Source of the DNA: Bacteroidales bacterium | GTDB lineage: Bacteria; Bacteroidota; Bacteroidia; Bacteroidales; UBA7960 | Reading direction: 5' to 3' | Length of the DNA: 52,298 bases | Assembly (NCBI GenBank): GCA_003552075.1 | Contig: PUOJ01000050.1 | Span: forward strand, 1-52,298 | Position numbers and translations under genes: made by a program | In this document: positions 32,400 to 48,161 of the stretch, piece after piece | Numbering within the stretch: the stretch's first letter is position 1 | Layout: every line of letters begins with the position of its first letter | The notes under the pieces: model-generated | Seen by the model: only the letters and a program-made list of their open reading frames with translations | The model's database searches: none | Told to the model about the DNA's origin: nothing

Positions 32400-33668
32400 T
32401 TACTTTCTGGACACCTCAAAAAAGTCGCCAATGGCGAAAGTAACCGTTCTGCCGTCAGACTTGGTTTCGCCATCTACCACAACGGGTTGGCCCAGGAGGT
32501 TGTTGATGCTGCCGAACCCACGGCGGGCATACCGGCCCAGCAGAGATGCGTCTGTATGCAACAGCTCTTCCGCCTGGTCAATGGGCAGCCCTGTTCGTTC
32601 TGTAAGCTCGTTCCGGGCTAGCTGGGCCAGTGTAAGGTCTTGCCTGTCGGCCGTTCGGGGATCGTCAGCATGCTCTGCGAATAAGTCTGCGCGGTCGCGG
32701 TAAGCAAGCCAGTAATATTCCTGTCGTTTGCGGAGAGGTTCCTGTGGTCTTTGTGTTGCGCCAACGGGAGTCTGTGGCATCACACGATGCATCTGCGATG
32801 CCAGGAGTGGTCTTAGCGCGGGGGTTTCGTAGCCAGGGTCTGCATAAGCTGCAGGCACACCAGGGTCCGCTGACTGGCGGTCAACTTGCAGGGAGGTCAG
32901 CCGGCTTGATGTGGTAGCAAGGTGGATGCCCGGCCGGGAGCTGGCAGGCAGCTGATTTGGAGGAATGGGGGTCATCGCCCGGGCTGACCTCTGCAGCAGA
33001 CCGGGAGCTTCCGCAACGGCCTCCGTCAGCTCCCGGTCGATGCCAGCAGGGGTGTCTTGTGTAAACTCCGGCGTCGTGTGGTCAGGCATGAAGTGCCACA
33101 TGATCACCGCCATCAGCACGGCAGCCGCAGCAGCTGCTGCCGTGTGGCTGTAACGACGCACAAAAGCTCCGATGGGATGTCGCTTCAGAGCTTGCTTTCC
33201 GGGGCACGTCGCTGCCGGTTCGGGGCGCAGACGGGCTGCACGCAACAATTCAAGGTCCTTTTGATACGCCGGGTTGGCTGACAAAAAGGCACGGGCCGCC
33301 TCTTCCTGTTCCTTGTCCAGGTCTCCTTCAGTGAAAGCAATAAGCACCGTGTCCACGCGTGCGGGCCGCACGCGAAGAACACCCTGGTCGTCAGGGGCAA
33401 AAAGATCCTCCGAAAGGATGGCCACTTCCGTCTCCGCATGTGCAGGTCCATGGGCAGCCGCCCAAAGGTCCTTTTTCAGGCTGTCCTTTCCGGGAAACTC
33501 AACCTGGTCCGCACCCTCCAGGCCCACCATCTCAAAGGCCTCAAACTCTGCCCGCAGGTCAGGATGGCTTTCAAGGAACACCAAAAGCTCTCGCCTGCCT
33601 TCGTCTGAAAGCCTGCCCTCAAAATGGTCGAGGAAATAGAGCGGATAGTTTTCCCGGTTGATCTTCAT
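32400..33668 (-). CDS. Putative anti-sigma factor (membrane protein)
   Basis: N-terminal INRENY..FLDHFEGRLS repeated internally (IAFTEGDLD..FLSANP); one TM helix; directly downstream of an ECF sigma gene. Confidence 0.65.
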   Translation of the reverse strand: MKINRENYPLYFLDHFEGRLSDEGRRELLVFLESHPDLRAEFEAFEMVGLEGADQVEFPGKDSLKKDLWAAAHGPAHAETEVAILSEDLFAPDDQGVLRVRPARVDTVLIAFTEGDLDKEQEEAARAFLSANPAYQKDLELLRAARLRPEPAATCPGKQALKRHPIGAFVRRYSHTAAAAAAAVLMAVIMWHFMPDHTTPEFTQDTPAGIDRELTEAVAEAPGLLQRSARAMTPIPPNQLPASSRPGIHLATTSSRLTSLQVDRQSADPGVPAAYADPGYETPALRPLLASQMHRVMPQTPVGATQRPQEPLRKRQEYYWLAYRDRADLFAEHADDPRTADRQDLTLAQLARNELTERTGLPIDQAEELLHTDASLLGRYARRGFGSINNLLGQPVVVDGETKSDGRTVTFAIGDFFEVSRK

Positions 33669-33761
33669 TGTCTCTTTGATGGTTTCAGGCCGAAAGCCAG
33701 GCTTCATGTGCATGGTGCATCCATTTGCCAAGATGCCGGGGCCGGGGGCCTTGATTGATTG

Positions 33762-34247
33762 TCATATGACCACGTCCATGCTTCCAATGTACTTTTTTAA
33801 AAACAGGCGCGCCCGGTAAATGTACACCTTTACCTGCGACTCGCTCAGGCCAGTAATTTGACCGATCTCGTGGTAGGAATACCCTTCATAATCGCGCAAC
33901 ATGATCACTGCACGTTGATCGGAAGGCAGGCGCGAAAGCCCTTCTTCCAGTATTTCCCCAAGCCCGGAGTATTCCTGCTGGTATCCTTCTGTCTGCATAG
34001 GAACTTCATCGCACAGGTCTTCCTTTTTTCCCTTTCTCAGGCTGTCGATCATCGCGTGATAGGCCGTGCTGAACAGGTAAGCGCGGGCTTTATCCACATG
34101 GACTTCACGATGGCGAAGCCAGAGCCTTTCAAAGCTGTCCTGCACCACATCCTGTGCCCGGGCATCGTCGCGCAGGTTTTTCAGGATAAAGCGATACACG
34201 CCATCCGCATAGCGGTCTACACACTGATTGTATTCGGCCGTTGTCAT
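33762..34247 (-). CDS. ECF RNA polymerase sigma factor
   Basis: AQDVVQDSF (region 2) and LRDYEGYSYHEIG..SQVKVYIYRAR (region 4). Confidence 0.93.
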   Translation of the reverse strand: MTTAEYNQCVDRYADGVYRFILKNLRDDARAQDVVQDSFERLWLRHREVHVDKARAYLFSTAYHAMIDSLRKGKKEDLCDEVPMQTEGYQQEYSGLGEILEEGLSRLPSDQRAVIMLRDYEGYSYHEIGQITGLSESQVKVYIYRARLFLKKYIGSMDVVI

Positions 34248-34815: not shown

Positions 34816-36123
34816 TTATTTTTTTACCCAAGGCTTGCTTATGGAGGAATTGCCGCTTGTCAGGCGCACGACATATGCACCTGCGGGCAGGTTGGAGATG
34901 TCTATGGCCATTGTCTTTCCAGGAATGTAGCTGCGCTTTTCACTTATCACCAGGTGGCCGGCGGCAGAAAGCAGGTCGACATGCACGTGCTTTCCCGTCT
35001 CATCCGGACTGATCTCTTTTATCCTTACGTGCAGCATCTTATCGGCAGGGTTGGGGTAGAGCTTTAGTTTGGCCGGCTGCTTTTCAGGAAGCAGGACACC
35101 GGTCTCATCGTCCACTTCAGCAACCAGCAGCTCGCCATCGACCACGTACCAGTAATGCCATTCTCCGCCTTCGCCTTCATCCCAGTTGTCGATATCAAAC
35201 CACCCGCTGCCCTCAAAGTCTCCTTTCACTTGGTATACCAGGATGGCTTCCCCGCCCTGCTCCCAGTGGAGAGGCTCTCCTGGCACGCAAGTTTCGGGGG
35301 GTCCCCCATGTTTTTGAAGGAAGTAGGCATAGTCATCATAGGATGGATGTCCGAACACCCGGGCCTGCCCGGCTTGATCAACCGCAATGGCGGTATATTC
35401 ATTGGCGGCGATCCCACGGGCATCCATTTGCCAGTCGGCGATCATCCTGGCCATGAAGCCCACATGCCGCCCATGGCGATCCATTCCGTCATCATGGATG
35501 CGGTTGTAGTGGCTGTCGGTTACCGTTTGCTCCATGAAGGGCACCTGCAGGAAGTCCTTTTCCAGCTTCACCCGCCAGTGGTAGGGATCCGAGAGTGCTT
35601 CCGAAGACCATACCGTGCCGTTTTCTGCGCCGAAAACCACCTCTCCGAGTACCGCCATCCCGGCGCTGGTGCCGCCAATGGTGATTTTTTTGTTGGTGAT
35701 CAGCTCGTTAAGCATGTCCAGCATCTCGCTGTCGCGCCATTCGTCCACATAGTGCCACTGGTTGCCACCGGCAATGAATACCACCTCCGCTTCCGCGAGA
35801 ATGTCGAGCACCTCCGGGCTTTCGGTGTCTTCCGGACCGGTGATCACGATAGACGTTACCGAGTTGACCTCCACGCCCAATCCGCTGTAGAAGTAGTTGT
35901 TGTATCCGTCCGAGCCGGAGGCCCGTAATACCACCACGTCGCCTCCATCTGCGCGCTGCAGCATCCAGGCCATGGCATCGTCGTTGTCGGTCTCACCGCC
36001 AGCCAGCACAAGCCCTGGCAGATGATCTGTGTCCACGGACTCCTCATTGCCCGTGTGATAGATCTCCTGTGTCCATCCGAAGAGCACTGTCAAAACCAAT
36101 AAAATCGTCAATAAAATTTTCAT
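34816..36123 (-). CDS. Secreted cyanophycinase-like serine peptidase (S51) with a T9SS type A C-terminal domain
   Basis: Signal peptide; FIAGGNQ, GGTSAG (Ser), TDSHY (His) and ANE (Glu); CTD LKLYPNPA..IDISNLPAGAYVVRL..KPWVKK. Confidence 0.8.
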   Translation of the reverse strand: MKILLTILLVLTVLFGWTQEIYHTGNEESVDTDHLPGLVLAGGETDNDDAMAWMLQRADGGDVVVLRASGSDGYNNYFYSGLGVEVNSVTSIVITGPEDTESPEVLDILAEAEVVFIAGGNQWHYVDEWRDSEMLDMLNELITNKKITIGGTSAGMAVLGEVVFGAENGTVWSSEALSDPYHWRVKLEKDFLQVPFMEQTVTDSHYNRIHDDGMDRHGRHVGFMARMIADWQMDARGIAANEYTAIAVDQAGQARVFGHPSYDDYAYFLQKHGGPPETCVPGEPLHWEQGGEAILVYQVKGDFEGSGWFDIDNWDEGEGGEWHYWYVVDGELLVAEVDDETGVLLPEKQPAKLKLYPNPADKMLHVRIKEISPDETGKHVHVDLLSAAGHLVISEKRSYIPGKTMAIDISNLPAGAYVVRLTSGNSSISKPWVKK

Positions 36124-36345
36124 ACGTCTCGTTTTTGTCAAAAACAGGGGGGCGTAATGCCTTAAAGCCTCATATCCAGGTGGCTTGGTAACACTCCGCC
36201 CCGACACGAACTTTCCAAAACACCTTCTTAGGGGTCAAAGCGCGAGCCTTTGCTAATCGTGCCGCCCCTCAATCTTCCAGGGCGGTCAGCACCTTCATCG
36301 CGTCCCGGGCCCTGGCTGAAGGCTAGCCTGTGTCATTCATGCAAC

Positions 36346-37959
36346 CTAAAACCCCGAAAGGTCCATTGTCACCGTCGGGATGAGCAGCAGGAAGCCCAGC
36401 AGGATCAGGATGGCGATGAGTGGGGTGACCCATTTGACCCATTTATGGTATGGGATGCGTGCAACGCCGAGCACGGCGATCAGCACGCCGGAGGTGGGGG
36501 TGATCATGTTGGTGAAGCCATCGCCAAACTGGAAGGCCATCACGGTGGCCTGCCGGGAGATGTCGATGAGGTCACTGAAGGGCGCCATGATGGGCATGGT
36601 GATGGCCGCTTTGGCTGAGCCGCTTGGGATTACTATGTTGACAATGGTCTGGATCACGTACATCACCCCGACGGAGGCCACGCTGCCAAACTGGCCGAGC
36701 GAACGACTCAGTCCGTAGAGGATGCTGTCGATGATGCCACCATCTTCGAGCACCACGATGATGCCCCCTGCGAGTCCGACGATGATGGCTGCCGACATGA
36801 TGTCCTTCACCCCGTCGAGGAAGGAGGTGGCGATGTCGTTGGCATCCTTTTGTACGGCAAGTCCTGCAGCGATCCCCATCCCCAGGAAGAGGGTGGCGAT
36901 CTCCATCACGTACCACTGGTATCCCATCACGCCCACGATAAGGAAAAGGATGGTGTAGGCCAGCAGGAGGAGGATAAAGAAGTGCACTGACTTGCGGAGG
37001 GTCCATATCCCGGCCAGGGCAAAGATCACGGTGGCCACGGGGATCACGGTGATGGTAGCCGATGAGGCGCCCACGGTCAGCGTGGACAGCGGGTACATCA
37101 CAGAAAAAATGGCGAGTACCAGCAAGACCGCCGCATATACGTACCAGGCCATCCTGGGCGTATAATAGGTGATGTTGTTCACGTCGCTGGCCTCTCGTTT
37201 TCGCCAGTAGCTGTCTTCTTCATACATGGTGGATCGCGTGGGGTCTTTTCGTATTCTGGACACATAGCGCAGCACAAAGGCAATGCCCACGATGTTGATC
37301 ACCACCCATGCAAAGAGGCGGTATTCGAGGCCTGAAAACAGGGGCAGGTCGGCCAGGCCCTGGGCGATTCCGATGGTGAAGGGGTTCAGGATGGCTCCGG
37401 CAAAGCCAAGATGGGCGCCGATGTATACCATGCAGACTCCCGTAATGCTGTCGTAGCCCATGGAGATCGCCAGCGGGATCAGGATGATCACGAAGGCGAT
37501 CGTCTCCTCGCTCATCCCGAAAATGGCACCAAAGGCACTGAAGAGCAGCATCACCATCACAATGATGATGTTGTCCACACCCAGCCGGCGCATGGTGGCA
37601 TTGCTTTCGAGTTTGCGTGCATAGCGCAGGAAGGACATGATTCCCACATCGATGGCCTTGGTCTGGTTCATGATCCAGAAGGCGCCGCCGATCATCAGGA
37701 TGAACACGATGATGTTGGACTGTCGTACAAAACCGTTGAAGAGCGCCGACAGCACCTGCCAGGTCTGCGGCTGGCTGTCGAGTGTGTGCCCCTCCGGAAG
37801 TTGGTCCTCGTAATAAAAGACCATGGTGCTTTGTTCTCTGCCGTCGATGACCACCGTCTCCTCAATGTATTTTCCCGGTGGGATGAACCAGGTGAGGACG
37901 GCTGCCAGGATGATGATGAAAAATACGATGACGTAGGTGTGGGGTATCTTCTTCAGCAT
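36346..37959 (-). CDS. YfcC-family inner-membrane transporter
   Basis: IPHTYVI, FGMSEETIAF, NPFTIGIAQG, PSGSAKA and FQFGDGFTNMITPTSG. Confidence 0.88.
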   Translation of the reverse strand: MLKKIPHTYVIVFFIIILAAVLTWFIPPGKYIEETVVIDGREQSTMVFYYEDQLPEGHTLDSQPQTWQVLSALFNGFVRQSNIIVFILMIGGAFWIMNQTKAIDVGIMSFLRYARKLESNATMRRLGVDNIIIVMVMLLFSAFGAIFGMSEETIAFVIILIPLAISMGYDSITGVCMVYIGAHLGFAGAILNPFTIGIAQGLADLPLFSGLEYRLFAWVVINIVGIAFVLRYVSRIRKDPTRSTMYEEDSYWRKREASDVNNITYYTPRMAWYVYAAVLLVLAIFSVMYPLSTLTVGASSATITVIPVATVIFALAGIWTLRKSVHFFILLLLAYTILFLIVGVMGYQWYVMEIATLFLGMGIAAGLAVQKDANDIATSFLDGVKDIMSAAIIVGLAGGIIVVLEDGGIIDSILYGLSRSLGQFGSVASVGVMYVIQTIVNIVIPSGSAKAAITMPIMAPFSDLIDISRQATVMAFQFGDGFTNMITPTSGVLIAVLGVARIPYHKWVKWVTPLIAILILLGFLLLIPTVTMDLSGF

Positions 37960-38011
37960 GGGTCAACGATTTAAGACTTGCTTGTACACGGGTTAAACGG
38001 GGTTGCAGTGT

Positions 38012-38077
38012 TGCTGTTGGCCATTGGCTGTTGGCTATTCGCTGTTAGCGATCGGTTATCGGCTGTTGGCTGATGGC
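38012..38077 (-). repeat. Heptamer array (plus strand GGCTRTT-like)x9 overlapping the cyanophycinase C-terminus
   Basis: tgctgtt ggccatt ggctgtt ggctatt cgctgtt agcgatc ggttatc ggctgtt ggctgat; it encodes AISQQPITDR and the stop. Confidence 0.75.
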
Positions 38078-38923
38078 AAAGCGTTCGCCGGGCAGGAATA
38101 TGTCGAGCTGCAGGTTTCGGCCGCCCAGTTTGTGTTCGTATTGGGTTTTGGAGGCGTCGGGGTTTCTGTACACCAGCACCTGGGCTATTCCTATCACTTC
38201 TGCCTCATTTCCGTTGACCAGGATGGCGGTGGATTCGTCGATGCCGATTCCGGGCAGCTCCGGGTGTTCCAGCACGGAGGTGATCAGGCGGTTGTGGCGG
38301 CTTCTCCACACGAAGTGCTGGTCGATCACGGCGGTGGTCAGCAGGCCGAGTCCTTCGGCCAGTTCAAGGTTTTCTGATTCGATCACCGGGAAGGTGGGCC
38401 GGTATTCGGGGTAGCGCAGTTCATCGCCGGTGATCATCTTTTCGCTCATCACGGCGGCGCCGGCACTGGTCCCGGCGATCACGGCGCCACCGGCGTAGGC
38501 TTCGTGGATCGCCTCCATCACCGGACCGTCGTACACGATGTCCATGAAGCGGTTCTGGTCGCCGCCACTGATGTAGATCAGCGGGGCTTGTCTGAGGGAG
38601 TCGACCCATTCCTGGCGTGGTTCCTCGTCCGGAAGAAAGTTAAAACCGGCTATGCGGCTGATTCCTTGTTCCAGGAACTGTTCGCTGGCCCATATGATGG
38701 CCGAGTCGGGCTCGGAGCTGGACATCGGCAGGATGGCCACATAGCCCTCATCCCAGATGCCGGCCTCATCAATCATCCGCTCCACCATCTCGGCCGGGCG
38801 GCTGCCGCCACCGATGATGAAAAGCGAGCCTTCCGGATGATGCGCTTCTGTCCGCTCTGCCGCGGGCTGGCAAGCCCACAGGGTGGCCAATACAATGGCT
38901 AATACAAGAATGTGTGTCTTCAT
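38045..38923 (-). CDS. cphB: Cyanophycinase (peptidase S51), lipoprotein
   Basis: Lipobox LWAC; LFIIGGG, SGGDQ, GTSAGA, IDQHFVWRSRHNRL and GIDESTA give the Ser-His-Glu triad plus the Arg-rich substrate motif. Confidence 0.9.
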   Translation of the reverse strand: MKTHILVLAIVLATLWACQPAAERTEAHHPEGSLFIIGGGSRPAEMVERMIDEAGIWDEGYVAILPMSSSEPDSAIIWASEQFLEQGISRIAGFNFLPDEEPRQEWVDSLRQAPLIYISGGDQNRFMDIVYDGPVMEAIHEAYAGGAVIAGTSAGAAVMSEKMITGDELRYPEYRPTFPVIESENLELAEGLGLLTTAVIDQHFVWRSRHNRLITSVLEHPELPGIGIDESTAILVNGNEAEVIGIAQVLVYRNPDASKTQYEHKLGGRNLQLDIFLPGERFAISQQPITDR

Positions 38924-39807
38924 TTGCTCCCGATAAAGAGGTGAATATCTGTCAGTACGATCGAATACAGGTCGGTGGAGTCGTGGTGGCGGAAGGCCAC
39001 GTGGATCTCTTCTCCTGCAAAGTCAGCGAGGTCAATGCTTCGAAGCTGCCACACCCAATTTTCCATTTCGGGGTCCAGCCGTTCGCTATAGATGGTTTCA
39101 AAGTCTTCCACATCGGTCCCGGTGGTTGACACCAGCACGCTGTACTTTTCCGTCCTGAACTCCGGTCCGGAGGCACGCGGGGTCACATAAAACTCAAGCA
39201 TTACCTCTTCCTGTTCGCTTAAGTCGATCTTTGGCGTGACGATCCAGTTGTCGGGCTCCAGTACTTCGCCTGTTGCTGCATCCCAGGAGTCGGACATGAT
39301 GTAATACTCTGTTTCGTCATCGCCCTCGAAGCTGTCCCAGTACCAGTTGCGGCCGTCGCCATTGAGGTCGATCAGCGTCCACCCTTCCGGCGGGAAGTCT
39401 TCCTCCAGTGCCGGGTCATCAAATCGTTCCCGGAAGAGTGTTGACACGAGGCTCAGTCGCTCCGTGGCCTCCAGCTTGTTGTAATGCAGCTCCCTTTCCG
39501 GCTCCACCCTCAGGGTCACTTCATACACGCCATCCTCTTCGTAAATTGCCACGGGGTGTTCCTCGTCAGAGGTGTTTCCATCGCCGAAGTCCCAGTGGTA
39601 GCCCACTGCATTCAGGGATTTGTTTTCAAAGGAGACCTCATAATAGATCTCCCCGGTCTCTGAGTCGGTCAGGACCTCAAACGCATAGTCAAATGCTGCC
39701 TGGGTGCTCGCTGCAGGCACCTCCATCTCATCCTCCGAGCAGGCCTGCAAGGCCACGATGAGTGCCGGAACGAGAAGCAGGCTCATTATTTTCAGCAAGG
39801 TTTTCAT
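38920..39807 (-). CDS. Surface lipoprotein with PKD and cleaved-adhesin (choice-of-anchor J-like) domains
   Basis: Lipobox LQAC then acidic SEDE; YHWDFGDG..YEVTL (PKD); WTLIDLNGDGRNW..PDNWIVTP..VAFRHHD; ATGA overlap with the next gene. Confidence 0.82.
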   Translation of the reverse strand: MKTLLKIMSLLLVPALIVALQACSEDEMEVPAASTQAAFDYAFEVLTDSETGEIYYEVSFENKSLNAVGYHWDFGDGNTSDEEHPVAIYEEDGVYEVTLRVEPERELHYNKLEATERLSLVSTLFRERFDDPALEEDFPPEGWTLIDLNGDGRNWYWDSFEGDDETEYYIMSDSWDAATGEVLEPDNWIVTPKIDLSEQEEVMLEFYVTPRASGPEFRTEKYSVLVSTTGTDVEDFETIYSERLDPEMENWVWQLRSIDLADFAGEEIHVAFRHHDSTDLYSIVLTDIHLFIGSK

Positions 39808-39914
39808 ATTGTGGTGTTGTTTTGTGAATATTTTCTAAAGGTGTGCATGTCAAACGGCAAAAGGTCTAAAAGGATGCTTTTGCTGCTGGCTTTTGGCCGT
39901 TTGTTCTTCGTTTT

Positions 39915-41258
39915 TTAGTAACAGTCGTTCTGGTACATCTCATCGTGGAAGTTGGTCAGCAGCTCACCCAGCGGGATGGGGAAGCGCGTATAACACTCCT
40001 CGTCAAGGCCGTCGAGCTCTTCCACTGCCCTGCCACTGCGCACAAGGTCAAACCAGCGGTGCCCTTCGAAGGCAAACTCTTTTTGCCTGGTTTCATGGAT
40101 GATGTCGAGCAGTTGTCCGGGGTCGGTGGTTTCAATGGGGTCCAGCCCGGCTCTTTCAAGCACCATGTTGACGTCGGCGCGTGCCTGGTCGAGTGATTCC
40201 CCGAGCAGGGCATAAGCTTCCGCACGGATGAGGTACATCTCTGCCAGTCGCATGACATAGACGTTGTCGGTTCCTGTTTCGATGTCATTGTATTTGATGG
40301 CATAATGGTTGTCTCCGTCGAGTGCGATGGAGAGGTCCCGGCGCACATCATGTTCAGCATACCTTTCGTAGAGCGTTTCGGTTGGCGAGAACTCCCTTCT
40401 TCCGCTCAGGGATGTCGGGAAGAAATACTCTGCCAGCCTGTTGCGGGCCTGCTCATAGAAGTCCACTTCGAAAATGCTTTCACTGTTGCCTCCATCGGCA
40501 AACAGGGTTTCGAAGGGCACCAGCTCCAGCCCGTAATCTTCGATGACGGCTGTAGCTTCGGCTGCAGCGGTGTTGAGTTGAACATCTTGCCCGGTGATGG
40601 CGTGTTCAAAGAGGCTGACCCTTGCTCTCAGTGCCTGTACGGCAGCCCTGGAGGCCAGGCCCTGTTCCACGCTGGTTCGCAGGTAGGCTTCAGCAAAGTC
40701 GAGGTCGTCGTGCACCTGCAGGTATACCTCGGCATAGGGCCTTCGTGGCACGTTGAGGTCGTCTTCATCTTCCGTGGCGGGCTCTGTGCGGATGGGCACG
40801 GGGCCAAACAAGCGCACCAGGTCGAAATGGGCCAGGGCGCGCAGGAACTTCAGCTCGGCGAGGTAGGCGTTGGCCTCCTCATCGCTTAGCTCATCCACCT
40901 GGGGAATTTTGGCGATGGTATGGTTTGCCCTGTTGATCATCCGATAGATGGCCGACCAGGTTCCTTCCACGATCACATTGTCGGCAAGGATGCTGTTGTT
41001 ATCCATCTGGTTATAGCCTGCCGTGGTCCCTGTCCAGGTCAGGTTGTCGGCCGACAGGTCGCCGGCCACGAGGAAGTTCCGGCCATAGTAGCCGGCTGCC
41101 TGCAGCGCAGAGTAAGTGCCGGTGATGGCACTTTCCACGTCGGCTCTGCTTTCAATGGCATCTTCGCCCGGAATGCTGTGATAGGGCTCCACGTCCAGCA
41201 CGTCGCATGCGGAGAGCACAAAAACCAGCATAATGGGCAGCAAAAATATTTTTTTCAT
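39915..41258 (-). CDS. susD: SusD/RagB family nutrient-binding lipoprotein
   Basis: Lipobox LSAC; ELKFLRALAHFDLVRLFG, RLAEMYLIRAEA and EFAFEGHRWFDL. Confidence 0.95.
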   Translation of the reverse strand: MKKIFLLPIMLVFVLSACDVLDVEPYHSIPGEDAIESRADVESAITGTYSALQAAGYYGRNFLVAGDLSADNLTWTGTTAGYNQMDNNSILADNVIVEGTWSAIYRMINRANHTIAKIPQVDELSDEEANAYLAELKFLRALAHFDLVRLFGPVPIRTEPATEDEDDLNVPRRPYAEVYLQVHDDLDFAEAYLRTSVEQGLASRAAVQALRARVSLFEHAITGQDVQLNTAAAEATAVIEDYGLELVPFETLFADGGNSESIFEVDFYEQARNRLAEYFFPTSLSGRREFSPTETLYERYAEHDVRRDLSIALDGDNHYAIKYNDIETGTDNVYVMRLAEMYLIRAEAYALLGESLDQARADVNMVLERAGLDPIETTDPGQLLDIIHETRQKEFAFEGHRWFDLVRSGRAVEELDGLDEECYTRFPIPLGELLTNFHDEMYQNDCY

Positions 41259-41374
41259 GATATGTCTTTGATTTACTTGTTTTTACAATGCGTCGGGTGC
41301 CTGTGCTTCCGGTTCATTGCCTTTGCTTTGTCGTTCAGGCAAAGGGCCCGGAGGCACCGCTTTTTCCTTTGGCT

Positions 41375-44314
41375 TTATATGTCGAGGCTGAGCCCGAGTG
41401 AAATGGTACGTACCTGCGGGTGGGTAAAGAAGTCGGTGCCCCTTCTGAGGTCATCGGCACCGGCATAGTTCACTTCCGGATCCATGCCGCTGTAGTTGGT
41501 AAAGGTGAGCAGGTTTTCGCCTGACACGAAGACCCGTGCACTCCTCATCCCCATCCTGGCCACCACGTCCGGGTCGAACCGGTAGGACAGCCGCAAGTTT
41601 TTCACCCGGAGGTAGGAGCCATCTTCAATGAAACGGCTGGATATCCTGTTGTTATTGTTCGGATCCAGCTCCGAAGCCCTGGGGACGTCGGTTTCGTCGC
41701 CAGGCTGCTGCCAGCGGTCAAGTACCGCAGTGGTCTGGTTGTCGCTGCCCTTCATGGACTCGATATAGATGCGGGTGCCATTGAAAATGTCGTTGCCATA
41801 AGAGAACTGCAGGAAGACACTCAGCTCGAAGTTCTGATACCTGAACCGGTTGGTAAGGCCTCCGGTGAAGTCTGGGTTAGGATCTCCAATTTTGGTCCGG
41901 TCTTCCGAGGTGACCTGTCCGTCGCCGGTGATGTCGGCAAATACGATGTCGCCGGTCGAGGGGTCCACGCCCAGGCTCTTGTATCCATAGAAGATCCCGA
42001 TGGGCTCTCCTTCTCGCACGCTGTTGCTTCCCCTGCCGAGGTTATCCAGGGGCTGGCCCTGGTACAGCTCGAGCACCTTGTTGCGGTTTCTGCTGATATT
42101 GAAGTCGGTAGACCAGGAGAACACCGTGTTGTCGATGTTGACGGTGCTCAGGGTGAGTTCGATGCCCCGGTTTTCCAGTTCGCCGATGTTGGAGGTGATG
42201 CTGCCATATCCTGTGGTATAGGATATGGGGCGGCTAAAGAGCAGGTCCTTGGTGTGGTTGTAGTAGTAGTCGACGCTCATTTCGATGCGGTCGTCATACA
42301 GGCCCACATCCACGCCTGCGTTGTACTGGTAGGTTGTTTCCCATTTGAGGTCTGGGTTGGCGATGCCACGTGGGAAGATCCCGGACTGCCCGAGGTAGTT
42401 TGCGCCTCCTCCGTAGAGTGAGAGGTAGGCAAAGTCGGGGATGCCGTCGTTACCGGTGATGCCATACCCGGCACGCCACCGCAGCTCGCTTATGGGGGTT
42501 CCCCAGGCGCGGAAGAAGTCTTCTTCTGACATGCGCCAGGCCACGGATGCGGCAGGGAAGAAGCCGTAACGGTTTTCATCCCAAAAGCGTGAAGAGCCGT
42601 CATAGCGTGCGGTAAAGGAGAGGATGTAGCGGTAGTCATAGTTATAGCGCAGCTGGCCAAAGAAGGAGTTCATCCCGCGGTCTGTAGCATTGGCGGAGGC
42701 TTCTGATATGGTGCCTGCCTCTGCCACATACTGAAAGTAGGCGTTGGGAAAGTCTACACCGCGGATGAAGGAGTTGCGGCGCTCAAACCGTTCAAACGAG
42801 TAGCCGCCAAGCACTTCCATGTTGTGCACTTCGTCGAAGGTGTTAAGGTAGCGCAGGGTATTGTTCGACACGATGTTGAGCACGTTGCTCAGACCTTCCA
42901 GGCCGATGCCGTTGGAGCGTGCGCCCTGGCGCGTGATGGCCGGGTCATAGCTGTGTTCGCGCAGGCTCAGGTAGTCAAAGCCCCAGGTGGTATTGAAGGT
43001 GAGGTTGTCGAGAATGCGGTAGTCGGCGAAGATGTTACCAATGGTCCTATAGTTATGTGCTTCATTGATGGCTTCCTTGCCGATGGCTACCGGGTTGGCG
43101 AAGGGGGCATCTTCGTTATACGTGCCATCTTCATTGTATACCGGATAGATGGAAGGGTTGGCGATGGCGTTGGCCAGCGGCGCATTTAGCGACTGGTCGC
43201 CTTCCACCCGGTTGTTCAGGGCATAGGACACCCCCACGTTCATCCCGATGTCGAGGCGTTCATTGACCGTGTGGTCAAGATTGAGCCGGCCGCTAAGCCG
43301 CTCGTATGAAGTGCCGATCAGCACCCCTTCCTGGTTCAGGTAGCTGCCCGACACATAAAACTGGGTTTGCTCCTCCCCGCCCCTGGCGGAGAGCTCGTAG
43401 TTCATCGTTGGGGCAGTCGACAGGACCTCGCTGAGCCAATCGGTGTCCACCATGGCTGCTGGATCACCGGGCTGTGTCCCTTTCAGTTCGTGCCATTGCT
43501 GCGCGTTGAGCATGTCCAGGCGATTTTCTATGTCTTGCATGCCGGTGGTGGCATTGAAGCTGATTTGCGTCTCTGCCTGGTCTCCTCGTTTGGTGGTGAT
43601 CAGGATAACGCCATTGGTGGCCCTTGCCCCGTATATGGCTGCCGCCGAGGCGTCTTTCAGGACGGTGACGGACTCGATGTCGTTGGGGTTGATGTCTGAC
43701 AGGGCGTCGATGCCTTGTCCGGAAAATCCAACCTGTCCGAAGTCACCGGTGGTCACCGGGATGCCGTCTACCACCACCAGCGGTTGGTTGCCGGCCGAGA
43801 TGGAGCTGCTTCCCCTGATCCGGATGGCGTTGGCGGCACCAGGGGTGCCGGAGCTCTGGGTGATCTGTAAGCCCGCCGAGCGCCCTTGCAGCACACCGTC
43901 GATGGTACGCATGTTTGACTCTTCCAGGTCTTCGGAGCTCACTACGCCGACAGATCCGGATATCAGGCGCCGGGACTCTGTGCCGTAGCCGGTGACGATC
44001 ACTTCGCCCAGCTCAGCCACATCGAGCTCCATCCCGACGTTAATCACGCTGCGGCCTTCGACCGGGATGGTTTCTGGACGCATGCCCACGAAGGTGAAGC
44101 GCAGGGTGTCTTCTGGCGAAACGGCGATCTCATAGCGTCCGTCGCCATCGGTGATGGTGCCACGGGTGGTTCCCTGCACCGTCACGGTAACCCCGGGAAG
44201 GGTAATATCGCCTTCGTCGACCGAGGTCACCACGCCGCTCACCGTCATGCGGTCGGCTTTCACCACAAGGGTGGCCATCAATAAGATGAGCATGGAAAGA
44301 AAGATGTTCTTCAT
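41375..44314 (-). CDS. susC: SusC/RagA family TonB-dependent transporter
   Basis: N-terminal extension domain, EVIVTGYG, IRIRG, LKDASAAAIYGARATNGVILITTKRG, NPDLKWE and YSGMDPE. Confidence 0.96.
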   Translation of the reverse strand: MKNIFLSMLILLMATLVVKADRMTVSGVVTSVDEGDITLPGVTVTVQGTTRGTITDGDGRYEIAVSPEDTLRFTFVGMRPETIPVEGRSVINVGMELDVAELGEVIVTGYGTESRRLISGSVGVVSSEDLEESNMRTIDGVLQGRSAGLQITQSSGTPGAANAIRIRGSSSISAGNQPLVVVDGIPVTTGDFGQVGFSGQGIDALSDINPNDIESVTVLKDASAAAIYGARATNGVILITTKRGDQAETQISFNATTGMQDIENRLDMLNAQQWHELKGTQPGDPAAMVDTDWLSEVLSTAPTMNYELSARGGEEQTQFYVSGSYLNQEGVLIGTSYERLSGRLNLDHTVNERLDIGMNVGVSYALNNRVEGDQSLNAPLANAIANPSIYPVYNEDGTYNEDAPFANPVAIGKEAINEAHNYRTIGNIFADYRILDNLTFNTTWGFDYLSLREHSYDPAITRQGARSNGIGLEGLSNVLNIVSNNTLRYLNTFDEVHNMEVLGGYSFERFERRNSFIRGVDFPNAYFQYVAEAGTISEASANATDRGMNSFFGQLRYNYDYRYILSFTARYDGSSRFWDENRYGFFPAASVAWRMSEEDFFRAWGTPISELRWRAGYGITGNDGIPDFAYLSLYGGGANYLGQSGIFPRGIANPDLKWETTYQYNAGVDVGLYDDRIEMSVDYYYNHTKDLLFSRPISYTTGYGSITSNIGELENRGIELTLSTVNIDNTVFSWSTDFNISRNRNKVLELYQGQPLDNLGRGSNSVREGEPIGIFYGYKSLGVDPSTGDIVFADITGDGQVTSEDRTKIGDPNPDFTGGLTNRFRYQNFELSVFLQFSYGNDIFNGTRIYIESMKGSDNQTTAVLDRWQQPGDETDVPRASELDPNNNNRISSRFIEDGSYLRVKNLRLSYRFDPDVVARMGMRSARVFVSGENLLTFTNYSGMDPEVNYAGADDLRRGTDFFTHPQVRTISLGLSLDI

Positions 44315-44398
44315 AGTGATTGCGTATTTGGTTTATTGATTATGATGTGATGTACACGGGTTAAAGGGCTACTGAGGGGTGCGGTTTGGTGTGTCTGG

Positions 44399-45556
44399 TT
44401 ATTCATACGTGCCTTTCCGCAACATTTTTCCGTCCTTCACCATCATCTTGCCCCTGGCACAGAGGTGAACGATGCGAAAGTCCTTGTCCACCAACAGGAG
44501 GTCGGCATCTTTTCCCGGGGCGACACGGCCTTTGCCTTGCAGCTTGAGGATGTCAGCCACGTTGGAGGTGACGGGCTGCAGTGCTTTTTCCAGGGGCAGG
44601 TCTTCTTCCAGGACACAATCCCGCAGCTCATCCATCATCGATTTCAGTCCGCCGGATTCCAGCCTCACCAGCTCTCCCTTTTCGTTGAACTGTGGCAGGG
44701 AGCCTGCGCCGTCGCTGCTCATCGTGACATGTGCCAGGGGCACGCCGGCTTTTAATAGTGCCACAATGCCTTTAGACGGTTTAATTTCCTCGTCAGGAAA
44801 GATGGGATATGCACTTGTGGTGAAGTCCACGTAGCCGTGTTTGCCGTATTCTTTGGCGTCTTCAAAAATATATTCATTGCGGTTACAGTGCGTTGGCAGA
44901 AACTGTGTCAGCTTGAGTTCACTGAAGTTGACGGCATCATAGAGCGGCTGAAATGGGTTTTCCGCATCGCCCATATGGATGTTTACGATGCCCGACTTGC
45001 CGCCCAGCATTGCGCCTACGCGCGAATGTGCGGCCAGCCGGATAAGCTCCGACACCGTGGGCGTCGAAGACCGGTGGTCCGACAAGGCGATCTCCCCGGT
45101 ACCGATCACCTCTTCGATCATGCTGATGTCTTTGCCGACATCTCCCAGGATGGTGGGAGTTGGCACCTGGTAGGCCCCAGTATACATATACGCACTGACG
45201 CCTTCTGCGCGCAGGCCTTTGGCTTTCATGAGCACGGAGCGCAGGTCGCGGGTGAGGCCGTCGGTGCCGAGGCAGCCCACAACGGTAGTCACGCCGGCTT
45301 CTAGCATCCTGCTTAAGGGCATCTCTGGCGTCCGGCTGGCCGGGCCACCCTCTCCGCCCGCGCCGGCGATGTGCACGTGTGAGTCGATGAGTCCGGGAAA
45401 CAGGCGGAGCCCCGTCCCGTCAATGACGTCCACATCCAGGTTTTCAGGTGGTGTAATCTTTTTGCCGACGGCCACGACCTGGGTGGCAGCCACCAGGACA
45501 TCCATTGGCCCGAGGTGATCCGGTGCATACACCTCGCAGTTGGTGAACAGTATCAT
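44399..45556 (-). CDS. iadA: Beta-aspartyl (isoaspartyl) dipeptidase, metallo type
   Basis: DSHVHIAGAGGEGG, GCLGTDG, GEIALSDHRSS, PTHCNR and SSDGAGSLP. Confidence 0.95.
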   Translation of the reverse strand: MILFTNCEVYAPDHLGPMDVLVAATQVVAVGKKITPPENLDVDVIDGTGLRLFPGLIDSHVHIAGAGGEGGPASRTPEMPLSRMLEAGVTTVVGCLGTDGLTRDLRSVLMKAKGLRAEGVSAYMYTGAYQVPTPTILGDVGKDISMIEEVIGTGEIALSDHRSSTPTVSELIRLAAHSRVGAMLGGKSGIVNIHMGDAENPFQPLYDAVNFSELKLTQFLPTHCNRNEYIFEDAKEYGKHGYVDFTTSAYPIFPDEEIKPSKGIVALLKAGVPLAHVTMSSDGAGSLPQFNEKGELVRLESGGLKSMMDELRDCVLEEDLPLEKALQPVTSNVADILKLQGKGRVAPGKDADLLLVDKDFRIVHLCARGKMMVKDGKMLRKGTYE

Positions 45557-45674
45557 TATGTGTGTATTTAAGGTCAGCACTAATAAAGTCGAAAAGCACT
45601 GGCTTGCCAGGCATGATGGGTTTTGGCAACCCCATGACAGTTATTGGCCTTCAGGCTCCTCATTGCAACAAAGA

Positions 45675-45682
45675 CAAATTTA
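45675..45682 (-). promoter_or_regulatory. TAnnTTTG promoter element for the iadA-susC operon
   Basis: Minus strand TAAATTTG in an AT-rich divergent region ~120 nt upstream of iadA. Confidence 0.5.
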
Positions 45683-45820
45683 GTAAGTTTTTTAAAATAT
45701 TTATTAATTCGGCTCTTATTTCTTTCGCGGTCATCAAATACACCTTTGCTGTATCCATTTTAAAAATATATTACCTTTACAGGTCGAAAATTGTGGCACA
45801 CAAATTAAAAATCGTGACCT

Positions 45821-46681
45821 ATGACGGATTTTACCAACACACCTGAGATTGCTGATGAGGACATCCGGCAACGTACGGAAACAATATTGCAGGATGCGCG
45901 TGAAACTTCCGATATGGGAAAGGTTTATCGTGAATTGCTTGGGGTGATCGACCTGACCACCCTGGAGGGCACCGACACGAAGAGGCGGGTGGAAGAGCTT
46001 TGCAACCAGGCGGTGTCATTTTCGGCTTTGCCTGATGGGTTGCCTGATGTGGCGGCGGTTTGTGTCTATCCGCCTTTTGTGGCGCAGGCCCGCAAGTTGT
46101 TGGAAAACACAGGCATCAGTGTGGCGTCCGTAGCCGGTGCCTTCCCTTCCGGTCAGTCGCCGCTTTTTGTAAAGATGGCGGAGGTACGGTATGCTGTGGA
46201 CGAGGGTGCACAGGAGATCGACATGGTCATCTCACGCGGGAAGTTCCTGGAGGGCGAATACAGTGAGGTTTTTGATGAGATCGCCGCCATCAGGGAAGCC
46301 TGTAAGGATGCGCACCTGAAGGTTATTTTGGAGACTGGGGAGTTGAAGACGGCCACCAACATTCGTCGTGCCAGCGAGATCGCCTTGGAGGCAGGGTGTC
46401 ATTTCCTCAAGACTTCCACGGGGAAGGTCAAGCCGGCGGCCACGCCGGAGGCCATGCTGGTGATGCTGGAGGCGATCCGCGACCACCACAAAAAAACCGG
46501 CCTGATGACCGGTATCAAGCCTGCCGGGGGCATTTCTGACCCCGAGACGGCCCTTGCTTATTATCGTCTCACCCGCGAGGTGCTTGGCTCCAAGCGGCTG
46601 AGCAAAAAGTGGTTCCGCATAGGAGCCAGCCGCCTGGCCGGCTCCCTGGTGGAGGCTATCCGCAATGCAAAAAACGCCTGA
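45821..46681 (+). CDS. deoC: Deoxyribose-phosphate aldolase
   Basis: IDLTTL, AAVCVYP, EIDMVI, LKVILETGEL, KTSTGK, KPAGGI and RIGAS. Confidence 0.95.
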   Translation: MTDFTNTPEIADEDIRQRTETILQDARETSDMGKVYRELLGVIDLTTLEGTDTKRRVEELCNQAVSFSALPDGLPDVAAVCVYPPFVAQARKLLENTGISVASVAGAFPSGQSPLFVKMAEVRYAVDEGAQEIDMVISRGKFLEGEYSEVFDEIAAIREACKDAHLKVILETGELKTATNIRRASEIALEAGCHFLKTSTGKVKPAATPEAMLVMLEAIRDHHKKTGLMTGIKPAGGISDPETALAYYRLTREVLGSKRLSKKWFRIGASRLAGSLVEAIRNAKNA

Positions 46682-48161
46682 CCAGCTTCATGGTCTCTTC
46701 GGTGTTTCCGCTTAGCTTTTCCCTCAAGTTCTCGTCATCGTAAGCTTCCAGCGTGTTGATCACGCCATCCAGCAAGGTGTCGGGGAACACGTCATACTTT
46801 TTGTACACCTCGGCCTGTTCCCTAAGGTAGGATGCGGCCTTCCTGCAGGAATAGGGCAGCTGGGCCAACTGTTGCTGGCGTTCCTTGTGTTTTTCATCAA
46901 AGATGTTGACATCCACATAGGTCTTTTCGGCCAGCTCGAGGGCGTTGGGCATCTCCAGTCCGTGGCGTGCGCCCACGCAGAGGCCTGCGATCAGCAGGTA
47001 GATGTCTGCGGAGCCATCAGGGCAACGGAACTCAAAGGTCTGCTTGTCTCGCAGGTCTTTATCCTGTGGACATTCATTCGGGTTTTCCCTGGCGACCATG
47101 TCGCCCGATCCGACCCAGCCGAGGGGTACGCGCACGAGGGTGGAACGGTTACGTTCACCCCAACATACGTTGGTAGGCGCTTCCTGGTGGGGTACCAGGC
47201 GAAAATAGCTGGTAGGAATGGTGTTGCCAAAGGCAGAGAGCGAAGGTGCGAGGTCGAGGATCCCGGCGATGACCTTGCGTGCGGGGTCGCTGATGCGGTC
47301 ATTCTCAAGGGTCACATTCTCCCCGTCTTTCATGATGCGCATGTGGATGTGCATGCCGCTTCCGGCCTTGCCTGCCGTGATCTTGGGTGCGAGACTCATG
47401 GTCACGCCGTACTGGTAAGCCACCTGGCGCAGGATCCACTTGGCAATGATCAGTTGGTCGGCAGCAGACTCCACGTCTGTAGGCAGAAATTCGATCTCGT
47501 TTTGCTCATAATCAAATTCATCATCAGAAAAATTGCCCACCTCCGAATGGGAATATTTGATCTGCGCCCCGGTTTGTGCCATGGCCATCATCGCATCCAT
47601 CCGAAGCTGCTCCCACTTCACGAAAGGCACCGACTCGTGGTAGGCACGCTGGTCAGTCGCCCGGTACAGCGGGTCTTTCTCACTGATCACATAGTATTCG
47701 ATCTCTCCCATCACCTCCATTCCATAACCGGTCTGTTCCAGGAGCTCCTGGTGTGCCTTGCGCATGATGTTCTCCGGTGCACTCGCCAGGGGCTTGCCAT
47801 CCTTGTCGTAATAGGAACAGAGGATGTCCAGCGTCGGGATCTCCGTGAACGGGTTCATGAAGGCCGTGCGAAAGCGGGGGACGACATACAGGTCGGAAGA
47901 CCCGGCCTCCAGAAAGGAGAACAAGCTGCTGCCATCTACGCGCTCTCCCGTCGACAGGATGGTGTCCAGGTGTTCCCTGCTCTGGATCACAAAGTTCAGG
48001 GCCTTGAGGCGGCCATCGCCGCCCACATAACGAAAGTTTACTACCTCGATTTCGTTTTCCTGCACAAAGCGGATGATGTCCTCCTTGGTAAAATCAGCAG
48101 GGGATTTGTGCAAATAACGAACCAGTGGGTTGGGGTTTAACAGATATTGATTTTCTTCCAT
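46656..48161 (-). CDS. glnA: Glutamine synthetase family protein (type I-like)
   Basis: VDGSS, HSEVG, QNEIEF, GSGMHIH, RLVPHQEAP and FEFRCPD. Confidence 0.9.
   Translation of the reverse strand: MEENQYLLNPNPLVRYLHKSPADFTKEDIIRFVQENEIEVVNFRYVGGDGRLKALNFVIQSREHLDTILSTGERVDGSSLFSFLEAGSSDLYVVPRFRTAFMNPFTEIPTLDILCSYYDKDGKPLASAPENIMRKAHQELLEQTGYGMEVMGEIEYYVISEKDPLYRATDQRAYHESVPFVKWEQLRMDAMMAMAQTGAQIKYSHSEVGNFSDDEFDYEQNEIEFLPTDVESAADQLIIAKWILRQVAYQYGVTMSLAPKITAGKAGSGMHIHMRIMKDGENVTLENDRISDPARKVIAGILDLAPSLSAFGNTIPTSYFRLVPHQEAPTNVCWGERNRSTLVRVPLGWVGSGDMVARENPNECPQDKDLRDKQTFEFRCPDGSADIYLLIAGLCVGARHGLEMPNALELAEKTYVDVNIFDEKHKERQQQLAQLPYSCRKAASYLREQAEVYKKYDVFPDTLLDGVINTLEAYDDENLREKLSGNTEETMKLVRRFLHCG

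Follow-up and report, generated by a model that had tools for sequence, protein, structure and literature searches.

Cyanophycin is a major fixed-nitrogen reservoir in cyanobacterial mats and blooms, and its recovery by heterotrophs shapes nitrogen recycling there. In their 2017 abstract, Ben Hania and colleagues are said to report a complex homologous to polysaccharide utilization loci (PULs). Here we analyze a 52,298-nucleotide contig of a Bacteroidales bacterium (PUOJ01000050.1 of assembly GCA_003552075.1), which we call the window and in which a seven-gene, operon-like accessory cluster is probably a cyanophycin utilization locus. A passage of Sharon et al. 2023 (PMC10206079) attributes to Ben Hania et al. 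2017 (Environ Microbiol 19:1134) the description of a "cyanophycin utilization locus" in a Bacteroidetes strain that scavenges cyanobacteria. Scavenging clusters are named in that passage for strain L21-Spi-D4 and for Flammeovirga pacifica WPAGA1, and the clustered IadA and IaaA enzymes are described as promiscuous. A passage of a second paper (PMC6243061) gives Salinivirga cyanobacteriivorans and Cyclonatronum two S51 proteins of different structure, of which one carries a Por secretion domain. The window holds the gene set by which such a locus is recognized, with two S51 genes, iadA, susCD, and yfcC clustered on one strand. The locus is of a kind already predicted in print in 2017, and what is new here is a further carrier of that kind. 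An earlier, sequence-only reading of this DNA had proposed a PUL-like locus for scavenging cyanophycin. The function is supported by hidden Markov models (HMMs), catalytic residues, export signals, and conserved synteny, but the concept is not new, having been in print since 2017. That reading also knew of no characterized SusCD system for cyanophycin. Our search of full-text literature, with subscription journals largely outside it, returned no biochemical characterization of one and does not contradict the statement; the SusC, SusD, PKD/adhesin, and T9SS S51 proteins of such loci likewise seem to be uncharacterized.

The seven genes are co-oriented on the minus strand at 34816-45580 and span 10.8 kb, as judged from the list of open reading frames (ORFs) and their Pfam and NCBIfam matches. 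In order of transcription they encode IadA, SusC, SusD, a PKD/Cleaved_Adhesin lipoprotein, a lipoprotein cyanophycinase homolog of the S51 family (P0001), a YfcC/DcuC-family transporter, and an S51 enzyme with a tail for the type IX secretion system (T9SS; P0002). All seven had been named from the sequence alone, and each has a family match in the HMM check. The intergenic gaps in the same order are 84, 116, 107, -4, 85, and 222 nt, the negative value marking a 4-nt overlap of the cyanophycinase gene start with the PKD gene stop. No glycoside hydrolase, lyase, or esterase family was found in the seven genes or in the flanks at 29011-50166, which extends the earlier remark that the cluster holds no glycoside hydrolase. 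The locus is therefore PUL-like in architecture only. No step in base composition occurs at the cluster borders. The source is a 2.39-Mb metagenome-assembled genome (MAG) in 198 contigs, 86.5% complete, of which the window is contig C97.

The lipoprotein cyanophycinase homolog P0001 (292 aa; 38045-38923, minus strand) scores 151.2 bits on the TIGR02069 cyanophycinase model, above the cut-off of 126.6. On the PepE model it reaches 35.2 bits against 156. P0001 aligns near full length with solved cyanophycinases and keeps the motifs GGDQ, GTSAG (the nucleophile), DQHFVWRSRHNRL, and GIDEST. The Ser-His-Glu triad and the Arg-rich DQHFxxRxRxxR segment are also kept, as in the CphB chains 3EN0 and 7UQV. 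Its lipobox is LWAC, and Cys18 is invariant in a 16-sequence alignment (A1). The sequence after the lipidated cysteine (CQPAAERTE) carries no clear surface-export signal and does not fix the side of the outer membrane on which the enzyme lies. A third S51 gene in the genome encodes a PepE alpha-aspartyl dipeptidase (318.4 bits against 156; G000:C187:14750-15361, L009:1414-2124) and is unlinked to the cluster. On the same model the two cluster S51 enzymes score 35 and 29 bits.

The second S51 enzyme, P0002 (34816-36123, minus strand), is divergent. A signal peptide and an S51 domain are joined in it to a beta-rich extension and a C-terminal sorting domain of type A. Its 463-aa ORF extends to a GTG at 36207. 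Alignment of homologs places the start at M29 (coordinate 36123), after which a hydrophobic signal sequence follows. PF03575 matches at 37.1 bits, the Por_Secre_tail family PF18962 at 41.2 bits, and TIGR04183 at 37.8 bits. The residues S181, H233, and E270 are invariant in 22 homologous sequences, and a profile-profile alignment with cyanophycinases (hhalign) has a probability of 98.2% with the triad aligned. The AlphaFold (AF2) model has a mean predicted local distance difference test (pLDDT) score of 85.1. For this predicted structure, the best Foldseek matches are cyanophycinases, at target TM-scores of 0.74-0.78 and 15-21% identity, with PepE-type proteins ranked lower. A T9SS is encoded in the genome (GldK, 549.9 bits against 350), and type-A tails over the cut-off occur in 38 further ORFs. 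Export of P0002 by the T9SS is a well-founded prediction. At least 1382 relatives of P0002 are found at E <= 1e-5, and all 120 listed contain the S51 domain. Eight of these 120 homologs, about 790 aa long, add a Cleaved_Adhesin domain, together with a PF18998 domain and a Por tail (P0189, P0192, P0197, P0198, P0212, P0214, P0217, and P0219). The fused adhesin domain (P0189) is 40-44% identical to that of the PKD lipoprotein in the window. The fusion ties the genes for P0002 and the PKD lipoprotein together functionally.

The remaining five proteins have the families expected of an uptake and dipeptide-cleavage system. IadA, the isoaspartyl (beta-aspartyl) dipeptidase (44399-45556, minus strand), matches TIGR01975 at 476.8 bits against a cut-off of 331.25, over residues 11-393 of 393. 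The ORF reaches a GTG at 45580; the likely ATG at 45556 agrees with the end first assigned to the gene. The translation has no signal peptide, and IadA is probably cytoplasmic. No Asparaginase_2 gene was found in the MAG. The SusC-type TonB-dependent outer-membrane transporter (41375-44314, minus strand) scores 874.5 bits on TIGR04056 against 368. It carries the TIGR04057 signature and has CarboxypepD_reg, plug, and barrel domains, with no STN domain family among its matches. Orthologs in congeners are 79-83% identical, and paralogs in its own genome are at most 36% identical over the full length. The best solved chain is 8AA4_A at 518 bits; RagA scores 312 bits. Adjacent to SusC, across the 116-nt gap, lies the SusD-type lipoprotein gene (39915-41258, minus strand; PF07980 at 87.4 bits, PF14322 at 86.5 bits). 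Its product has the lipobox LSAC followed by the acidic stretch DVLDVE. The match of SusD to NanU was considered and rejected as functionally meaningful, at 85.6 bits against a cut-off of 425. The PKD lipoprotein (295 aa; 38920-39807, minus strand) contains one PKD and one Cleaved_Adhesin/choice-of-anchor J domain (PF07675, 88.5 bits; PF18911, PKD_4, 46.7 bits; NF038128, 87.3 bits), and its lipobox LQAC is followed by SEDEME. Acidic residues after the lipid-anchored cysteine mark surface export, and by this rule both SusD and the PKD protein are predicted to be surface exposed. The YfcC/DcuC-family inner-membrane transporter (537 aa; 36346-37959, minus strand) matches PF03606 (DcuC) at 347.1 bits.

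From domains and context, we infer a relay of six steps. P0002 would be exported by the T9SS and attack the polymer, either at the cell surface or in the medium. SusD and the PKD/Cleaved_Adhesin lipoprotein, a candidate substrate-binding protein, would hold the polymer or its fragments at the surface. SusC would then import beta-Asp-Arg units, as dipeptide or short oligomers, powered by TonB. The lipoprotein cyanophycinase would finish cleavage to beta-Asp-Arg. The YfcC-family carrier, a candidate beta-Asp-Arg importer, would take the dipeptide across the inner membrane, and cytoplasmic IadA would split it into Asp and Arg. The sequence-only reading had presented this as a complete catabolic relay. 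Gene identities, catalytic residues, and export signals support it in part, but the location of the cyanophycinase, import by SusC, and cleavage by P0002 are predictions that go beyond them.

Conservation of the arrangement was followed first within the genus. An ortholog of the cyanophycinase, 70-75% identical, is present in 8 of 24 species genomes (G401-G424). The window's gene order is kept in all eight, as far as their contigs reach. The neighbors recovered are PKD in eight, SusD and YfcC in seven each, SusC in six, IadA in four, and the T9SS enzyme in three. One congener contig (L246) has all seven genes, and another (L241) has no T9SS enzyme within 7 kb downstream. The cluster was not found in six congeners that are at least 92% complete (G402, G403, G407, G412, G416, and G423). 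Shared order in the carriers, together with partial presence in the genus, therefore marks an accessory block that would be inherited or lost as a unit, and the patchy distribution points to gain or loss of the block.

The same linkage extends well outside the genus. A pattern scan of one genome per species gave 553 confirmed relatives, of which we examined the best 80 as named loci, with full flanks defined as 10 kb. Both SusC and SusD are encoded in the flanks of 41 of the 80 loci and of 33 of the 47 that are fully flanked. The order SusC, SusD, cyanophycinase on one strand occurs in 29 of these 47. The sequence-only reading had looked to relatives for conserved susCD linkage, and the synteny search finds it there, in the eight carrier congeners as in the named loci. 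Among the 80, a second S51 gene is present in 24, YfcC in 16, and IadA or IaaA in 24. The full functional set occurs in seven named loci, including that of F. pacifica WPAGA1 (L084). Other carriers are Gelidibacter algens (ACAM 536), Dawidia cretensis (PWU5), Cloacibacterium rupense, Sphingobacterium athyrii, several Flavobacterium species, and Balneolaceae MAGs; by record titles the locus type also occurs in Balneolales (L041, L058). Many named loci have two PKD and beta-propeller-like lipoproteins in place of the single PKD/adhesin gene. Because synteny is conserved across orders, the gene arrangement is far beyond chance.

Two variants among the named loci deserve description. An S51 protein of about 667 aa, usually encoded upstream of SusC, is present in 16 of the 80 (L015, L016, L020, L023, L025, L026, L034, L038, L039, L045, L057, L060, L071, L077, L078, and L084; for example L071:5871-7874). 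It scores 100.8 bits on TIGR02069, below the cut-off, and about 400 of its C-terminal residues match no family. By sequence, it adds a third type to the cyanophycinase-like enzymes of these loci. The second variant is the Flavobacterium type, in 12-13 loci (L055, L059, L062-L064, L067, L068, L074, L085, L087, L089, and L091). In these loci a regulator of the Lrp/AsnC type and three further proteins (a class-III aminotransferase, a member of the penicillin-amidase family, and a dienelactone hydrolase) flank the cyanophycinase, an accessory set that differs from that of the window.

We also drew an even sample of 401 genomes from the phylum. A cyanophycinase over the cut-off is encoded in 89 of them and cphA in 50. 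Regions were fetched for all 58 matches from the cut-off to 200 bits, the mid-scoring class to which the window's enzyme belongs, and for the top 20. Of the 58 mid-scoring genes, 13 have SusC and SusD at a distance of about 10 kb or less, versus none of the 20 top-scoring ones. Counted by genome, SusCD-linked cyanophycinases were found in 13 of 400 evenly sampled ones. Most of the top-scoring 20 adjoin cphA, and IaaA or IadA is adjacent in 16. A maximum-likelihood tree of 76 enzymes was built by a quick search and midpoint-rooted for drawing only; L172 and L232 (no match at 50% coverage) and L122 were left out. One clade of 23 rows holds the window and every other SusCD-linked row, 13 in total, and 19 top-scoring (CphB) rows fall in a separate clade of 25, each with a Shimodaira-Hasegawa-like approximate likelihood ratio test (SH-aLRT) support of 99. 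A third group in the tree is mostly paired with YfcC alone.

A YfcC homolog lies within about 10 kb of a cyanophycinase homolog, usually adjoining it, in 13 of 57 even-sample regions, as in the 16 of 80 named loci given above. In a separate clade, 32-40% identical to the window's enzyme, the cyanophycinase gene sits directly beside a YfcC gene and has no SusCD nearby (L164, L165, L169, L176, L179, L182-L186, and L196). This pairing suggests a simpler, two-gene scavenging module.

Several points weigh against a locus for cyanophycin. The best PDB sequence match of P0001 is 7UQV, at 94.9 bits versus 81.0 for 3EN0, and the PDB title of 7UQV is "Pseudobacteroides cellulosolvens pseudo-CphB". For this reason, activity on cyanophycin of the SusCD-linked clade to which P0001 belongs is not secured. 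P0002 reaches 45.1 bits on TIGR02069, far below the cut-off of 126.6. It has DSH in place of DQH and a 5-residue insertion in the Arg-rich segment, after which two of the three Arg residues align. The transporter scores 368.7 bits on the YfcC equivalog NF008611, below its cut-off of 500; the YfcC assignment made from sequence alone thus holds for the wider PF03606 DcuC family but misses the equivalog. Within the 23-row clade, SusCD and YfcC are both missing from the surrounding 10 kb or so in nine rows, and a tenth has YfcC alone. A reverse test in the even sample was weak, since an S51 gene adjoins a single one of the 20 best SusD matches fetched (its SusC 53% identical), compared with 0 of 20 low-scoring SusD controls; the very best SusD match, on a 3.8-kb contig, was not among the fetched set. 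The cluster contains no regulator, neither a hybrid two-component system nor SusR. Among the listed metagenomes with near-identical DNA, none is an RNA run with the stretch 34816-44800. Finally, the product of known cyanophycinases is a dipeptide of about 290 Da, for which a SusCD transporter is not obviously needed.

The last point leaves two possible roles for SusCD. The SusCD-type system NanOU takes up sialic acid with high affinity, and by analogy the window's SusCD might serve for high-affinity capture of a scarce dipeptide. Alternatively, one of the S51 enzymes may yield oligomers. A more specific proposal, which we offer tentatively and think less probable than not, is that the T9SS-tailed S51 enzymes form a new class of depolymerases that attack cyanophycin outside the cell, different from both CphB and CphE and maybe cutting internally to give soluble oligomers. 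The Cleaved_Adhesin/choice-of-anchor J domain would then be a cyanophycin-binding module, SusCD would import (beta-Asp-Arg)n, and the lipoprotein cyanophycinase would be a periplasmic exo-enzyme. If true, this would be the first SusCD system specific for a non-ribosomal polyamide.

Outside cyanophycinase loci, the SusCD pairs closest to the window's have SusC genes about 41% identical to it and represent another locus type. A conserved 1070-aa protein comes next in 6 of 19 of these loci (L123, L124, L126, L127, L128, and L132); its score for the F510_1955 glycosylhydrolase family, 147 bits against 175, is below threshold.

The alternative that survives best, although we consider it unlikely, is that the locus imports and degrades some other Asp-rich or isoaspartyl peptide. 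The source could be protein debris, polyaspartate-like material, or peptidyl compounds, with the S51 enzymes acting as alpha- or beta-aspartyl peptidases. The S51 family does include PepE-type alpha-aspartyl dipeptidases, but a true PepE is encoded elsewhere in this genome. The pseudo-CphB title and the low score of P0002 suit another peptide, yet P0001 passes the TIGR02069 cut-off and keeps the whole Arg-rich motif of CphB. The promiscuity of clustered IadA and IaaA described in PMC10206079, and the penicillin amidase and dienelactone hydrolase of the Flavobacterium-type loci, would also fit such a substrate. Against this, 17 of the 41 named loci with SusCD have IadA or IaaA in their flanks, cyanobacteria abound in the habitat, and the cyanophycin reading had already been reached by earlier authors. 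Near-identical DNA was found in salt-lake, soda-lake, and lake-water metagenomes, the best holders of which may be the source sample.

Much less probable is that the cluster serves turnover of the host's own cyanophycin, with cphA lying in the unassembled 13.5% of the MAG. The earlier reading had seen no cphA in the window, and in the assembled 86.5%-complete genome none is over the cut-off either; the best TIGR02068 match, on another contig, has 92.7 bits against 850. The incompleteness of the MAG leaves room for such a gene, and 5 of the 13 sample genomes with a SusCD-linked cyanophycinase do encode cphA elsewhere. In at least five genomes (G091, G179, G259, G292, and G307), however, cphA is accompanied by a neighboring CphB of its own, from a different clade. 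The SusCD-linked copy therefore stands apart as a second system, and this argues that it would serve a different, external substrate. Five of the seven cluster proteins have export signals or are membrane transporters, and none of the 20 top-scoring cyanophycinase regions, most of them adjoining cphA, has SusCD nearby.

Transcription of the cluster as a unit is a prediction. The candidate operon promoter region (45557-45820, minus strand) is AT-rich, with 36% GC. It has a -7 motif of the Bacteroidota type, TAAATTTG, at 45682-45675. This motif, 126 nt 5' of iadA, is the only one, with none in the six internal gaps, and its background frequency on the cluster strand is 0.25 per kb. A single motif upstream of iadA is compatible with one transcript and weakly hints at it. 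A scan for sigma-70 sites gave fewer of them than in shuffled sequences (4 vs 7.1 and 9 vs 12.8), and such a scan is thus uninformative for Bacteroidota. That the genes are chance neighbors or only partly related in function, such as a generic SusCD beside amino-acid catabolism genes, is the least probable explanation of all, for although the cluster has no regulator, occurs in 8 of 24 congeners, and is an operon by prediction, its order is the same in all eight congeners with the enzyme, SusC-SusD-cyanophycinase recurs across several orders, both control sets gave 0 of 20, and the gaps are short with one 4-nt overlap.

The genes on either side are unrelated to the cluster, with a DeoC-family aldolase and glutamine synthetase on one side and an extracytoplasmic function (ECF) sigma factor on the other. 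The DeoC/LacD-family aldolase gene (45821-46681, plus strand) diverges from iadA. After it comes a glutamine synthetase gene (501 aa; 46656-48161, minus strand), which places nitrogen assimilation next to a presumed nitrogen-scavenging locus. The ECF sigma factor gene (33762-34247, minus strand) shares the cluster's strand and lies 568 nt beyond its downstream end. It is followed by a 443-aa ORF (32400-33731, minus strand) with no Pfam match, which could be an anti-sigma partner. A link between the sigma factor and the cluster is doubtful because SusC matched no STN domain family.

A cyanophycin utilization locus of this type extends SusCD/PUL logic from glycans to a polyamide, and by present counts the type is widespread in Bacteroidota. 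Since the idea has already been published as a prediction from genomes, what it can still yield lies in experiments, and cultured carriers make these straightforward, among them F. pacifica, G. algens, and several Flavobacterium species.

How the window's locus stands beside described systems can now be set out. In a passage of PMC6243061, the S. cyanobacteriivorans L21-Spi-D4 locus of Ben Hania et al. 2017 resembles it in having two structurally different S51 proteins, one with a Por domain. The window comes from a different genus, represented by an uncultured MAG of salt- or soda-lake origin, and the two loci are likened by description. The F. pacifica WPAGA1 locus (L084) is like that of the window on a single strand, with SusC 51% identical, SusD 35%, a PKD-type lipoprotein, cyanophycinase 46%, YfcC 37%, and a T9SS-type S51 enzyme 32%. 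It differs in having IaaA (Asparaginase_2) for IadA and an extra S51 protein of the 667-aa type upstream of SusC. With CphB (3EN0, 7UQW) and CphE of Pseudomonas anguilliseptica, the window's enzymes share the S51 fold, the Ser-His-Glu triad, and the Arg-rich substrate segment. Like CphE, they are predicted to act outside the cytoplasm. P0001 differs from these enzymes as a lipoprotein whose clade is separate and often linked to SusCD. P0002 is only 15-21% identical to solved chains, scores below the TIGR02069 cut-off, and is set apart further by its T9SS tail and beta-rich extension. Classical PULs and the RagAB peptide importer share the adjacent SusC and SusD, surface lipoproteins, and secreted hydrolases. 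In contrast to classical PULs, the window's cluster has S51 peptidases in place of glycoside hydrolases, and a non-ribosomal polyamide is its presumed substrate. The Pseudomonas aeruginosa aot operon with CphZ, as a passage of Sharon et al. 2023 in PNAS (PMC9974463) presents it, likewise scavenges beta-Asp-Arg in an organism without cphA. That operon, which has been tested experimentally, differs in using an ABC importer and an M14-type dipeptidase, with no cyanophycinase and no SusCD.

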